Below, piece after piece: positions 8,669 to 18,570 of a stretch of 19,372 nucleotides of DNA. The notes below the pieces were generated by a model. It saw only the letters and a list, made by a program, of their open reading frames with translations. It searched no databases and had not been told where the DNA came from. The stretch comes from Sandaracinaceae bacterium. GTDB lineage: Bacteria > Myxococcota_A > Polyangia > Polyangiales > Sandaracinaceae. The stretch is taken from the NCBI GenBank assembly GCA_044220955.1, contig JBGAQA010000115.1:1-19372 (forward strand), in the 5' to 3' direction. Both the position numbers and the translations under genes were made by a program. Within the stretch, counting starts at the first letter, position 1, and the number at the start of each line of letters is the position of its first letter.

Positions 8669-9184
8669 TCACCTCACCCCGGCGCTGATCTGGACGTCGG
8701 GGAAGAGCGGGACATCGTCACGGCTCCGCAGCGCGTCCATCGTCGCGATCACGTCACGATACGGAATGCCCGGATCGGCGCTCACGACGACGGTGTGCTC
8801 GGTGGGGTGTGCCGCGTGGAGGACGGCGGCGCAGCGCGCGATCGCCGCGACCTCGAAGCCCTCGTCACCGCGCGCCGCCATCGGGACGACGGGTCCGCCG
8901 ACGCGGCACTGGGCGTCCACGCCGCCCTCCCGCGTCGCCATGACCGCGCCCCGCTCGGTCAGCGTCACCGACAGGCCGAGCGGCGGAGCCCGGCCGGGGC
9001 CGAAGCCCGGGAGCTCGGCGCGCACCTCGCTCACGGTCGCGATGCTCGCGCTCGTCGCGAGCAGGAACAGCATCAGGTTGGTGACGATGTCGAGGAAGGG
9101 GACGATGTCGAGCTCGGTGCTGCCCGTCTGCTCGCTCTCGCGCTGACGGATCGCCCTTCGGAGCGCGCGCCGGATGTTCGTCAT
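8669..9184 (-). CDS. ExbD/TolR-family biopolymer transporter subunit (myxobacterial AglQ/AglS-like)
   Basis: TM segment ELDIVPFLDIVTNLMLFLL with the conserved Asp. Periplasmic VVVSADPGIPYRDVIATMDALR and terminal LFPDV. Confidence 0.88.
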   Translation of the reverse strand: MTNIRRALRRAIRQRESEQTGSTELDIVPFLDIVTNLMLFLLATSASIATVSEVRAELPGFGPGRAPPLGLSVTLTERGAVMATREGGVDAQCRVGGPVVPMAARGDEGFEVAAIARCAAVLHAAHPTEHTVVVSADPGIPYRDVIATMDALRSRDDVPLFPDVQISAGVR

Positions 9185-12462: not shown

Positions 12463-13223
12463 GCACCGTCATCGTCACCGGCGCGAGCCGCGGCATCGGG
12501 CTCGCGACGACCGCGGCGCTCGCGGCCCGAGGCGACAGGGTGATCGGGATCGCGCGCTACGACGCCGGGAGCGAGCACGTGGCGAAGATCGCCGACCCGC
12601 TCGCGCTCGACCTCTCGCGCACCGAGGATGCCGAGCGCGCGGTCGCCGCGGCGGAGGAGATCGCAGGGCCCGTCGACGCGATGGTCCTGGCCGCCGGCGT
12701 GGCCGAGCACGCTCCCCTCGAAGAGGTCGACGCAGCGCGCATCGAGCGCCACTTCGCGCTCAACGTCCGCGCGCCCCTCCTGATGTGCCGCGAGCTGGCC
12801 AAGCGTGCGAAGGCGCGAGGCAGGGGCGCCTCCATCGTGATGGTCGCCAGCACGCTCGGCATCGCACCGGCCAAGCGCACGAGCGTGTACGCCGCGACGA
12901 AGGGGGCGCTCATCGCGATGACGAAGGCGCTGGCCCTGGAGCTCGCGCCGGCCGGCGTGCGCGTGAACGCGATCGCGCCTGGCGTGGTCGACACCGAGAT
13001 GACCCGCCGGCTCCGCCTCGAGCCCGGCGAGCCCATGCCCGGCGGTGCGGAGCGCGCGCGTCGCGAGGACGAGCAGATGCGCGCGCTCGCGGGGCTGCAC
13101 CCGATCGGACGCGTGGGCCGGCCCGAGGACGTCGCGGCCGGGATCCTCTACCTGCTCGACGCGGAGCTGGCGGTCGGGACGATCCTGGTGCTCGACGGCG
13201 GGCTCACGGCGGGCAGCGCGTAG
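12459..13223 (+). CDS. Short-chain dehydrogenase/reductase (classical SDR)
   Basis: GTG overlaps the folB stop (GTGA). TGASRGIG, catalytic S (VASTLG), YAATK, VRVNAIAPGVVDT and LDGG. Confidence 0.92.
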   Translation: MSTVIVTGASRGIGLATTAALAARGDRVIGIARYDAGSEHVAKIADPLALDLSRTEDAERAVAAAEEIAGPVDAMVLAAGVAEHAPLEEVDAARIERHFALNVRAPLLMCRELAKRAKARGRGASIVMVASTLGIAPAKRTSVYAATKGALIAMTKALALELAPAGVRVNAIAPGVVDTEMTRRLRLEPGEPMPGGAERARREDEQMRALAGLHPIGRVGRPEDVAAGILYLLDAELAVGTILVLDGGLTAGSA

Positions 13224-14214
13224 CGGGCGGCTCTCGGTCGGACGTGGCGCGCGCGCCGCGGAGCTCCTCGATCTCGCGCTCGAGCTCCGCGATGCGTCGC
13301 TCCTGGGACTGCACCGTCGCGAGCACGAGGCTCGTATAGCCGTAGAGATCGACCCGCGCGCGGGAGGCCTCGACCGCGTACGAGGGGTCGGGCTGGTCCT
13401 CGATGACGAAGCCGAGGTGGCGCGAGCCCGCGAGCGCGGGGTCGGTGTACTCGTAGGTCGCGAGCTGCACGTCCTGGGCCTCGGCGGCGAGCGCGTCGAC
13501 CTCGTCGGGCGCGAGGTACCGGATGTCTCGCTTCAGGCGCCGGGTCGAGATCGGGCACTCGCCGCCGCGCTCCGTCACCCAGACACCGCCGGTGCATGCG
13601 CGGCCGCCGGCGTCCCCGCACTGATAGACGCACGTCTGCCCTTCGGTCGGGCACCCCGCGCCCAGCGCCGGCATCGCGGGCGGGCAGGCGGGATCGGGGT
13701 TCGGCACGTCGCAGTCCCACACGGGGGACCCCGGCCCGCAGAGCGGCGCGCCGCGCGGGCAGTCGGTGCAGTGGCAGGCGAGGTCTCCGTACGCGCAGAC
13801 GGCGCCGAGGTTCGTGCAGGGCTGGCGCGCGGCTGCCTCGCGCGTGGCCGGACACGTCTCGGAGGGAGGCGGGGGACAGCCTGGCACGGCGACGCGGAAG
13901 GCCCCGCCGGTGCAAGTGGCGGTCGTGCGGCACTCGCGTCGGGGGTCGCTTCCGTACTCGCAGACCAGCCCCTCCCGCGCGCACGGCGCGCCATCGGCAG
14001 GGACCGCGCTACCGCAGGGGCCCGCGGTGCCGCCGGCGTCGGCCCCCACGTCGCTCGGGGTCCCGGAGTCACTCGGCGTTCCGCCGTCGCCGCCCGCGGA
14101 GTCGACGGCGCCGCCGCCGTCCGCGCCCGAGGCGTCGGCGGGGGTCGTGCTCTGCGCGCACCCTGCCAGCGCCGTCATGGCGCAGAACAGAAGATGGAAG
14201 GACGCGTTCCTCAT
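13204..14214 (-). CDS. Lipoprotein with three Cys-rich modules and a C-terminal peptidase S74-like intramolecular chaperone/autoprocessing domain
   Basis: Lipobox LAGC (C19), a Gly/Asp linker, three C-x10/11-C-x6-C-x-Y modules, then STRRLKRDI, YEY, HLGFVIED, VDLYGY and coiled coil LATVQSQERRIAELEREIEELR. SD GGAG upstream. Confidence 0.85.
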   Translation of the reverse strand: MRNASFHLLFCAMTALAGCAQSTTPADASGADGGGAVDSAGGDGGTPSDSGTPSDVGADAGGTAGPCGSAVPADGAPCAREGLVCEYGSDPRRECRTTATCTGGAFRVAVPGCPPPPSETCPATREAAARQPCTNLGAVCAYGDLACHCTDCPRGAPLCGPGSPVWDCDVPNPDPACPPAMPALGAGCPTEGQTCVYQCGDAGGRACTGGVWVTERGGECPISTRRLKRDIRYLAPDEVDALAAEAQDVQLATYEYTDPALAGSRHLGFVIEDQPDPSYAVEASRARVDLYGYTSLVLATVQSQERRIAELEREIEELRGARATSDREPPATRCPP

Positions 14215-14965: not shown

Positions 14966-16528
14966 ATGTCCGACACGCTCCCGCCGCCGAGCCCGTCCGA
15001 GGGAGCTGCGCCCGACGGCGACGGGGAGCGCGCGGCGACGCCGCCGCCCGACGCGCCCGCGCGCACGGGCGGGCCCCGGGTGTTCGTCGTCAGCGGCGGA
15101 AAGGGCGGGCTGGGCAAGACGGTCCTCGCGGCGAACCTCGGCGTGTACCTCGCGAGCGTCGGCCGCCGCGCGTTGCTCGTCGACGCCGATCCGCAGGGGG
15201 CCAACGCGCACACGCTGGTCGGTGTTCCGGGGTCGCTCGCCCGGCGATCGCGCGAGCCCATCGAGACCCCGGTGCCGGGTCTGCGGCTCCTGCACACCGG
15301 GGCCGACGAGGGGCTCTCGGGCCTGCGCCGGAAGAAGAGCACGCGGGCGCTCTTCGACGAGCTGCTCGCGTTTCCGGGGATCGACTACGCCGTCGTGGAT
15401 CTCGGCACGGCGACCAGCCGCGCCGCGATCGCCGCGATGCTGCGCGCGAGCACGCCGATCCTCGTCACCCTGCCGGAGCCGACCGCGCTCGAGTCGACCT
15501 ACCGCGTGATCGCGCGTGCCTTCCTGGCCCGGCTGCTCTCGAGCGCGGGCCGCGCCGACCGGCTCGTGATCGCGACGCGCGCGCGCCAGCTGGGGGGCTC
15601 ACCCCCGCCCCTGGACCTCTGGCGCTCGCTCGAGGACGACGGACACCCGCTCGCCGACGACGTGCGCGCCGCGATGGAGGCGTTCCGCCCGGGCCTCGTC
15701 CTGGCGCAGACGCGGCTGCGCGCCGACCTCGATCTCGGAGACGCCGTGCGGAGCACGGTCCGGCGGCGCCTCGGCATCAGCGTCGAGTACTTGGGGCACG
15801 TCGAGTACGACGACACGGTGTGGACCTGCGTGCGCTCGAGGAAGCTCCTGCTCGTCGAGAGCCCCGGCACGAAGGCGGCGAAGAACATCGAGAAGATCGC
15901 GCGGCGCCTGCTCGCGCTCGAGTCCGGCAAGCGCCGAGCGCCGGTCCGGGCCGTGCCGCCCGAGAGCCATCACGATCTGCTCGAGGTGGAGCGCGGCGCG
16001 ACCGAGGAGGAGGTGCGTCGCGCCTACAAGCGGAGCCGAGAGGTGTATGCGCAAGGCGCGCTCGCGACGTACGGCCTCTTCGAGCCGCACGAGATCGAGG
16101 CCCTGCGTGCGCGGCTCGACGAGGCCCACGACGTGCTCCTCGATCCCACGCGGCGCCGGCCCTACGAGCTGAGCGTGTTCCCGCCTTCGCCCGAGCACGA
16201 CGAGCCCGTACAGGCGCGCGGCGAGGGCGAGGAGCCGCTGCCGCCGCCGCCGGAGATCACGCCGGACACGGCGTTCACGGGCGCGATCCTCAAGGCCGTC
16301 CGCGAGAGCCGCGGCGTGAAGCTCGAGGAGATCAGCGCACGAACGAAGGTCGGCATCGCGTATCTCGCCGCGATCGAGGGCGACGACTTCACGTCGCTAC
16401 CCGCAGCGGTCTACGTGCGCGGGTTCGTCGGCGAGCTCGCGAAGTACCTCGGGCTCGACGCGGCCCAGGTCGCGCGGACGTACGTGCGGCGCCTGCGTCG
16501 GGCGACCGAAGAGCGCAGGGCGGGGTGA
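14966..16528 (+). CDS. MinD/FlhG-like P-loop ATPase fused to an HPD-less J-like domain and a C-terminal RodZ-type (HTH_25/XRE) helix-turn-helix
   Basis: Deviant Walker A SGGKGGLGKT, LVDAD, VVDLG and TLPEPTA. J-like HDLLEVERGATEEEVRRAYKR...LDEAHDVLLDPTRRRPYE. HTH GAILKAVRESRGVKLEEISARTKV..AYLAAIE....LP..VYVRGFV. The start is ATG14966 or GTG14960. Confidence 0.85.
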   Translation: MSDTLPPPSPSEGAAPDGDGERAATPPPDAPARTGGPRVFVVSGGKGGLGKTVLAANLGVYLASVGRRALLVDADPQGANAHTLVGVPGSLARRSREPIETPVPGLRLLHTGADEGLSGLRRKKSTRALFDELLAFPGIDYAVVDLGTATSRAAIAAMLRASTPILVTLPEPTALESTYRVIARAFLARLLSSAGRADRLVIATRARQLGGSPPPLDLWRSLEDDGHPLADDVRAAMEAFRPGLVLAQTRLRADLDLGDAVRSTVRRRLGISVEYLGHVEYDDTVWTCVRSRKLLLVESPGTKAAKNIEKIARRLLALESGKRRAPVRAVPPESHHDLLEVERGATEEEVRRAYKRSREVYAQGALATYGLFEPHEIEALRARLDEAHDVLLDPTRRRPYELSVFPPSPEHDEPVQARGEGEEPLPPPPEITPDTAFTGAILKAVRESRGVKLEEISARTKVGIAYLAAIEGDDFTSLPAAVYVRGFVGELAKYLGLDAAQVARTYVRRLRRATEERRAG

Positions 16529-17809: not shown

Positions 17810-18040
17810 TCAGGAGTCCGCTGCGGAGGGCATCGGTACGCAGGACCACACGCGGTCGCGGCACGAGCAGAGGGTCGTATGGCCGCCGCTCGTGTACGTG
17901 CATGCCGCGAACCCGGGCGGCGCGCACGCGGTCCCGGTCACGGGCACGGAGTGCGGGCACCCGGCGGGCGGCAGCGCGTCCGCGCTCGCGCTGCTCGCGA
18001 GGCCGATCAGCGAGAGCAGCCCGAACGCGAGCGTGCGCAC
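17810..18040 (-). CDS. Small secreted Cys-rich protein (76 aa; signal peptide plus one 6-Cys module)
   Basis: GTG18040 lies 5 nt after the DUF962 stop. MRTLAFGLLSLIGLASSASA (AxA cleavage site), then CPHSVPVTGTACAPPGFAACTYTSGGHTTLCSCRDRVWSC. It is the C-terminal part of track ORF 17810..18751. Confidence 0.75.
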   Translation of the reverse strand: MRTLAFGLLSLIGLASSASADALPPAGCPHSVPVTGTACAPPGFAACTYTSGGHTTLCSCRDRVWSCVPMPSAADS

Positions 18041-18045
18041 GGCCC

Positions 18046-18570
18046 TCAATTCGGCTGGGCCGCGGGCGTGACGGCGTCCGTCTCGCGCGGCGCCGCGCCT
18101 GGCTTCGCGGGCGTCTCGAGGCCGAGCTCTTCGAGCGGGTCGCCGCTCCAGAGCTTGCCGCGCGCCATGTTGCTCCACATGCGCAGGTCCGCGAGGAACG
18201 ACCAGAGGGGATACTCGAACGTCGCGGGCCGGTTGCCCTCGACGCCGAAGTGGCCGATCCACGCGCACGCGTATGCGCTCACGACGCCCGCGGGGAACAG
18301 CACGGGCGAGGCGAGCGTCGGGAGCGCCAGCATGCCGGCGACGTGCGCGAGCGGCCGGCCCTTCGGCTCCTGCGTCGCGCCGTGGGCGAGCAGCGCGGCG
18401 AAGCCGGCCATGGCCAGCGGGAAGCGCACCGGTCGAGTCACCGCGCTCGCGACGCAGCTGGCGAAGAAGCTCGTCGTCCCCACGAAGTGCAGGCGCCGCG
18501 ACGTCGGGTTGCGGTGCTCGGAGAGGTAGTACGGCCAGAACTCCTCGAAGGACTGGTAGCGCTCGGTCAT
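18046..18570 (-). CDS. DUF962/Mpo1-like membrane protein
   Basis: FEEFWPYYLSEHRNPTSRRLHFVGT and YACAWIGHFGVEGNRPATFEYPLWSFLADLRM. Confidence 0.9.
   Translation of the reverse strand: MTERYQSFEEFWPYYLSEHRNPTSRRLHFVGTTSFFASCVASAVTRPVRFPLAMAGFAALLAHGATQEPKGRPLAHVAGMLALPTLASPVLFPAGVVSAYACAWIGHFGVEGNRPATFEYPLWSFLADLRMWSNMARGKLWSGDPLEELGLETPAKPGAAPRETDAVTPAAQPN

Follow-up and report, generated by a model that had tools for sequence, protein, structure and literature searches.

The gene considered here occupies positions 13204 to 14214, on the minus strand, of a 19,372-nucleotide stretch of DNA (the window), which is contig C17 of a 7.5-Mb genome with 72.5% GC. It encodes a protein of 336 amino acids, read as a cysteine-rich lipoprotein with a C-terminal S74/ICA domain, the self-cleaving trimer-assembly domain that phages carry on tail fibers. 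The gene is flanked by one for an HNH endonuclease and by a convergent SDR gene, in surroundings made up of housekeeping and signaling genes. Its parts are as follows, with a slash marking a predicted cleavage.

14158..14214, minus strand: lipoprotein signal peptide with lipobox LAG/C19 (residues 1-19), from the sequence, lipidation being predicted
14017..14157, minus strand: flexible tether rich in Gly, Ala, Asp and Ser (residues 20-66), from composition
13876..14016, minus strand: Cys module 1 (C67-C113, 6 Cys), from the sequence and a module-profile match
13711..13854, minus strand: Cys module 2 (C121-C168, 8 Cys), the core module plus a probable extra loop pair, C152/C159
13555..13686, minus strand: Cys module 3 (C177-C220, 6 Cys), its final Cys at position -3 relative to the predicted cut
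13531..13557, minus strand: junction C220-P-I/S223-T-R-R-L-K228, with the predicted cut I222/S223 and the Ser-Lys dyad, from conservation and analogy with MYRF and T5 pb1
13315..13548, minus strand: compact S74/ICA core (residues 223-300), containing the motifs LGFxxED and VDLYGY, its tentacle replaced by a short loop, from Pfam and HHalign
13255..13314, minus strand: C-terminal coiled coil (residues 301-320), its core reading V/Q/I/L/I/L, with RIAELE (307-312) as its RhxxhE motif
13204..13254, minus strand: unconserved tail and stop, with a 20-bp overlap with the 3' end of the convergent SDR gene

The elements that a sequence-only reading had picked out are all present in the open reading frame: the lipobox, the linker (rich in Gly, Ala, Asp and Ser), S223-T-R-R-L-K228, HLGFVIED (residues 266-273) and the terminal coiled coil. 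A similarity search with the 336-aa protein matched 128 proteins at E<=1e-3, and the architecture is therefore more than a product of chance. In an alignment of 90 sequences, S223 and K228 are each found in 89, lipobox C19 is kept in 86, and 83 have exactly 20 Cys in the passenger, as I will call the part preceding the S74/ICA domain. The tether contains 13 G, 9 A and 7 D, and its mean column conservation is 0.16. By its SPII signal and lipobox LAGC19 the protein is classed with the bacterial lipoproteins, its lipidation being probable. A metatranscriptome contig of 151 bases, from one dataset, is identical to part of the gene, but it covers 13225 to 13374 only and does not establish transcription. 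No promoter or terminator consensus was found.

The C-terminal domain had been called S74 by eye, with an HMM search offered as the check. The protein taken alone fails that check and the family passes it. Pfam PF13884 scores the 336-aa protein at 14.7 bits (E 0.038), under the 22-bit cut-off, and nothing in NCBIfam matched it, but a profile of 68 sequences of the domain, compared by HHalign with six canonical S74 domains including that of K1F endoNF, aligns over 87 columns at 96% probability (E 3.2e-9), with Ser and Lys, the Y-x-Y strand, G-x-I and the coiled coil all in register. PF13884 matches 49 of the 90 aligned homologues at E<=0.05 (best 9e-7), and several members of the subfamily exceed the Pfam cut-off. 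In the PDB, the whole-family profile returned a single chance match, and the ICA profile weak matches only, the T5 L-fibre (E 0.52) ranking below chance matches, with interferon gamma above it.

Of 119 full-length homologues collected by whole-protein similarity, 118 have the Ser-x4-Lys dyad (S223/K228), as do 347 of 349 proteins overall, the latter set being partly chosen by a profile that includes the dyad. The residues between Ser and Lys vary while the two themselves are nearly invariant, and the ICA core is more conserved (0.69) than the passenger (0.56-0.59). As judged by homology and the dyad, the domain is a divergent member of S74/ICA. It is also a compact one: the loop equivalent to the tentacle is 12-16 aa long in all 325 proteins measured, as against roughly 60 in endoNF. 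In 295 of 324 proteins the ICA region contains no Cys. The core positions of the coiled coil are conserved across 338 proteins, 82 of which have the RhxxhE motif, where 8 would be expected by shuffling (a tenfold enrichment). The trimer is a prediction from sequence, and the motif is described as enriched in trimers yet not diagnostic of them, being found in dimers too (PMC13060782).

MYRF and T5 pb1 are cut at P586/S587 (PMC8326128) and T1263/S1264 (PMC4690869), respectively, and by analogy the present protein would be cut at I222/S223. The predicted C-terminal fragment has 114 residues and a mass of 12.8 kDa, close to the roughly 13 kDa estimated earlier. I consider it very probable that autocleavage does take place. 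Three loci, L098, L100 and L101 (genomes G183, G168 and G083), encode long Cys-poor proteins with an S74 domain seemingly intermediate between the canonical form and the subfamily with Cys-rich passengers. The match of L100 to the profile has an E-value of 1.8e-12, and long branches prevent the three from being placed.

The sequence-only reading counted three Cys modules, with 6, 8 and 6 Cys. The counts stand, but all three are copies of a single module with six Cys: the profile of module 1 matches module 3 in 89 of the 90 sequences, with a best E-value of 1.2e-12. In module 2, C152 and C159 probably form an additional loop pair. An even number of Cys follows the lipobox in 180 of 186 passengers, a pattern compatible with full pairing in disulfides and in agreement with the disulfide-bonded lipoprotein envisaged from the start. 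The passenger resembles nothing catalogued in the collections searched: it matched no family in Pfam or NCBIfam, its profile found 0 matches in the PDB at E<=10, and the ESM Atlas gave no usable passenger match lacking S74 clusters.

The passenger meets the ICA domain in a nearly constant way. The junction reads C-P-x/S in 72 of 77 locus entries, and a Cys stands at -3 from the predicted cut in 313 of 324 family proteins (15 of these classed by that motif) and is absent in the other 11. The same ICA subfamily caps other passengers as well, among them a module with a TCGDPVC motif and Kazal, antistasin-like and Dickkopf-like repeats, and occasionally TIG or cohesin domains. P0202, P0220, P0214 and P0261 are examples in which the ICA follows passengers not made of such modules (TIG, cohesin and unnamed domains), two of them lacking the -3 Cys.

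Conversely, the six-Cys module is found in at least seven proteins of the source genome that have no S74 domain. What precedes the cut appears from its sequence to be a third repeat of the Cys module, one that also occurs alone and in non-S74 proteins, and not a triple beta-helix or beta-prism, which would place the protein outside the class of beta-helical fibers. The surface fiber proposed earlier finds no support here: the modules run directly into the scissile bond and leave no room for a beta-helical stalk, the loop in place of the tentacle is short, and homologues lacking the ICA are common. Within the window itself, an ORF of about 79 aa at 17810-18049 (minus strand) begins with a signal-like sequence and holds a single copy of the six-Cys module on its own (pairwise E 2.6e-7), and similar single-module ORFs lie on contigs C240 and C292 of the source genome.

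The family is found widely among Myxococcota. A scan of a genome collection confirmed 179 of 182 candidate stretches, and the named homologues come from Sandaracinaceae and other Myxococcota. The 79 loci returned are mostly titled Myxococcales, Polyangia or deltaproteobacterium, with a few other labels, and near-identical DNA is present in activated-sludge and bioreactor metagenomes. The ICA profile collects 916 clusters at 50% identity with E<=1e-10, the longest among the 150 best representatives having 717 aa, short of the about 1000 aa of a long fiber of the MAT kind. Within the order it matches at least 63 of 301 genomes, with one to three copies each (16 candidates were scored per genome, and some ICA copies may be missed). 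The distribution is patchy, the ICA being present in 7 of 41 relatives. A sister architecture occurs in cultured strains of Sorangium and in Polyangium jinanense, where the database label "tail fiber domain-containing" on the protein is misleading. In L022, L036, L045, L051 and L145 the passenger and ICA motifs lie in different frames or in a broken ORF, as a result of assembly error or decay.

The label raises the matter of phage. The sequence-only reading saw no phage genes in the window, which is correct for structural genes (0 matches to head, tail or connector PHROGs among 19 window proteins or segments), although the HNH endonuclease and a DNA adenine methyltransferase are of types also found in phages. 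Nor are the homologues embedded in prophages. The called genes beside them, up to two per side, were taken from 42 and 28 of the 79 loci, and among the resulting 136 + 91 = 227 neighbors there is no head, portal, terminase, packaging or baseplate family. The ICA family has no match among the viral contigs of IMG/VR, and tblastn against annotated phages found nothing better than E 0.03. Counter-matches are few: L026 has an integrase at a distance of about 5 kb, L056 has a transposase, and there are partial matches to "tail" or "lysis" categories in L021, L037 and L042, which I read as peptidase or hydrolase domains. An origin as the tail fiber of a prophage or eCIS was rejected, there being no linked phage structural genes among the neighbors covered and no viral homologues in the collections searched. 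The neighborhoods also contain no conserved operon partner, the largest clusters of neighbors being generic families, kinases and ABC transporters among them. The HNH gene upstream was considered as a homing partner and rejected, as it is not kept beside homologues (a single HNH match was found, next to L017).

The passenger is also found without the ICA. A search with the passenger alone gave 27 proteins, and of the 10 that were new, two lack the ICA. The passenger profile matches 78 of the 301 genomes, 31 of them with no ICA match (by comparison made by hand, with 16 ICA candidates scored per genome). Forty regions were fetched, chosen for having no adjacent ICA match, and they contain 43 passenger ORFs, every one of which ends in a real stop. 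The stop falls exactly two residues past the last Cys in 28 of the 43 and within 11 residues in 42. The 28 ORFs that end in C-x-x thus have the same end as the predicted cleavage product. As a control, among 275 Cys-rich proteins of the source genome, 203 end 0-5 residues after the last Cys and 39 exactly two after it. The shared C-x-x end is enriched, then, but it is partly generic, and the 43 ORFs are kin rather than independent cases. The 275 (called proteins with at least 5 Cys in the last 60 residues, against one protein with this ICA) make up a very large set of disulfide-rich proteins that are probably exported.

The Cys count is even in 32 of 33 ICA-free homologues and the Cys pattern is that of the ICA-bearing passengers, but the two forms are only about 36% identical, and the ICA-bearing ones keep extra conserved residues (ATRE, CTNC), their consensus being one residue longer ahead of the last Cys. 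All of the 30 top-scoring passenger matches carry the ICA. A second type of passenger has it in 23 of 29 ORFs, with ICA-less ends such as GGCPI-stop. Both forms coexist in several genomes (G268 and G315, for example), and ICA-free passenger genes form tandem arrays, of two and three genes, at L175 (contig C4 of G315) and L192 (contig C20 of G319). On the passenger tree the state of the ICA requires 4 changes, as compared to 29 when shuffled, and the well-supported branches are compatible with 1, while the ICA tree has long branches and resolves poorly. No order of ICA gain or loss is claimed from these sequences. Recent loss through nonsense mutation of the Ser codon was tried as an explanation and rejected, as there is no remnant of the ICA downstream of 49 ICA-free ORFs.

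Kin recognition had been suggested as a role for the protein and is disfavored. The passenger is conserved across several families rather than hypervariable, with a mean identity of 47% among 30 ICA-bearing passengers, a figure inflated by the 30 being the top profile matches. The kin-recognition receptor TraA is, like the present protein, a Cys-rich surface protein of myxobacteria. TraA, however, is polymorphic and works with TraB, whereas the lipoprotein family has a conserved passenger and no conserved partner gene.

The closest published parallel is also bacterial. The domestication of S74 by a predatory bacterium has been described in Bdellovibrio bacteriovorus, where 13 of 21 MAT fibers have S74 and Ser-dependent self-cleavage of Bd3182 was demonstrated (PMC10769870). 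S74 is present on eCIS fibers too (PMC12923769). Like the MATs as there portrayed, the protein considered here is chromosomal, non-phage and exported, with a C-terminal S74, and its passenger family includes S74-less members. The MATs, in contrast, are beta-helical fibers of about 1000 aa that share an N-terminal beta domain, quite different from a 336-aa disulfide-module lipoprotein without a beta-helix, and the ICA-free twins here just stop at the cut site, with no alternative tip swapped in. The terms "lipoprotein", "disulfide" and "Myxococc" are absent from the main text of PMC10769870. Full-text searches found no paper on an ICA attached to disulfide-rich lipoproteins, the searches excluding paywalled papers and the supplementary tables of MAT-like proteins in PMC10769870, which may bear on novelty.

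The S-x4-K dyad, the Y-x-Y/W strand, G-x-I and the terminal coiled coil align with those of phage K1F endoNF and T5 pb1 (PF13884, MEROPS S74). Phage ICAs, however, are described as bearing long beta-hairpins as tentacles and, in the triple beta-helix upstream, an Arg that acts as sensor (PMC4690869), while in the present family there is the 12-16 aa loop, a disulfide module upstream and no viral member found. The ICA of MYRF and MrfA is also compact and without long tentacles, with a trimer driven by the coiled coil, an X-P-like junction before the Ser and a membrane-tethered precursor (PMC8326128). MYRF differs in having a beta-helical stalk and in being anchored at the C-terminus, from which its N-terminal part is released. 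Here it is the N-terminal part that would be anchored, with no stalk.

The explanation I favor, at roughly even chances, is that the ICA serves as a transient, self-removing trimerizing cap or a checkpoint in assembly and folding, and not as the scaffold of a beta-helical fiber. The protein would be exported and anchored by lipid at Cys19, and the 20 Cys of its passenger would form disulfides. The coiled coil and the ICA would bring three copies together, and within the trimer Lys228 would activate Ser223, the I222/S223 bond would be cut, and the 114-aa (12.8 kDa) cap would be freed. I infer these steps of trimerization, cutting and release from the conservation of the dyad and from the mechanism described for MYRF, T5 pb1 and Bd3182. 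The membrane would then keep a tethered protein of three modules with C-P-I as its end, the product that the ICA-free homologues would encode directly. Until export and disulfide formation are done, the cap would cluster three passengers and shield the last module. There is a precedent in T5 pb1, whose uncleaved chaperone is reported to mask binding (PMC4690869). As for the passenger, its architecture suggests that its likeliest job is binding an extracytoplasmic ligand or surface, and a surface location and a role as adhesin would be in keeping with this.

That the ICA is needed to fold or trimerize the passenger, as had been supposed, finds no support, given how commonly the same passenger occurs without it, ending at the predicted cut site. 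Since homologous passengers exist without the ICA, it is unlikely to be required for folding, and no trimer interface is apparent in the passenger sequence. Several considerations count against the cap. The C-x-x end is partly generic and shared among kin, RhxxhE is found in dimers as well, and the scan for the ICA may have missed some copies. The ICA-free forms, at about 36% identity, may do a different job, and the characterized clients of S74 (T5 pb1, MYRF and Bd3182) are reported to stay trimeric after cleavage (PMC4690869, PMC8326128, PMC10769870). The last point favors a different outcome, a rather unlikely one in my estimate, in which the ICA templates a permanent trimer, through a cyclic inter-chain disulfide swap at C220 or the packing of module 3, and then leaves behind an avidity cluster with three anchors and nine modules, the sequence-only idea minus the fiber. 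The Cys sits exactly at -3 across different passengers (the 313 of 324 noted above), tighter than the genomic background of tail lengths, an even Cys count suits cyclic swapping as well as it does pairing within a chain, and the additional conserved residues of ICA-bearing passengers (ATRE, CTNC and the one before the last Cys) also fit. But the ICA-free homologues share the Cys pattern, 11 of the 324 ICA-bearing proteins have no -3 Cys, and passengers as different as Kazal, antistasin, TIG and cohesin would all need the same swap. A bolder form of the idea, and one I hold to be less likely again, makes C-P-x/S-ICA a plug-in cassette throughout Myxococcota, turning monomeric disulfide-rich lipoproteins into covalent trimers by a cyclic inter-chain disulfide at the terminal Cys, which would replace the Arg sensor of the beta-helix, before excising itself without trace. 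If this were true, the ICA would be a template for oxidative oligomerization instead of for a beta-helix.

The remaining explanations seem to me improbable. The ICA could be a largely dispensable hitchhiker that removes itself, like an intein or BIL, and is tolerated at the C-terminus through its traceless excision. Its patchy distribution (at least 63 of 301 genomes, 7 of 41 relatives), its many unrelated passengers and its traceless junction are what one would expect of such an element. A conserved endonuclease or mobile gene adjoining it is not seen, however, nor are decayed copies downstream of the 49 ICA-free ORFs, and the clustering of ICA-bearing forms on the passenger tree means that the domain has been retained over long times. 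Even less probable is that the released ICA trimer, or the release itself, acts as the output, with the meeting of three copies in the membrane setting off a signal or timer. The ICA is indeed the most conserved part, and in MYRF its cleavage is reported to serve for release and apparently not to depend on the folding of what lies upstream (PMC8326128), but the passenger is conserved too and exists alone, and no receptor, sigma factor or kinase is a conserved partner in the neighborhoods. To the same slight degree one might suppose that the ICA no longer cleaves and is a permanent trimerization tail, in view of its Pfam score below threshold and the replacement of SD by S-[TSR] and of IAQE by IIED. 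Against this, Ser and Lys are almost invariant amid varying residues, and endoNF itself has SN where the canonical motif has SD. I prefer the transient cap or checkpoint to each of these.

All of the S74/ICA clients compared (T5 pb1, MYRF and Bd3182) are described with a beta-helical stalk, while here a large subfamily resides on small disulfide modules. Its natural ICA-free twins provide a ready test of how an ICA works without a beta-helix: does trimerization alone trigger cleavage, and does the client stay trimeric? A traceless trimerizing tag of about 100 aa that tolerates unrelated passengers could also serve protein engineering.

Other features of the window deserve mention. An ExbD/TolR gene lies at 8669-9184 (minus strand), with no adjoining ExbB/TolQ gene in the window. 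The end of the contig (about 19290-19372) is a low-complexity hexamer repeat, reading GEGEGE in one frame, which is the likely reason for the break in the assembly. At 14966-16528 (plus strand) a MinD/ParA-type ATPase is fused with a DnaJ-like segment and, at the C-terminus, an HTH_25 domain.
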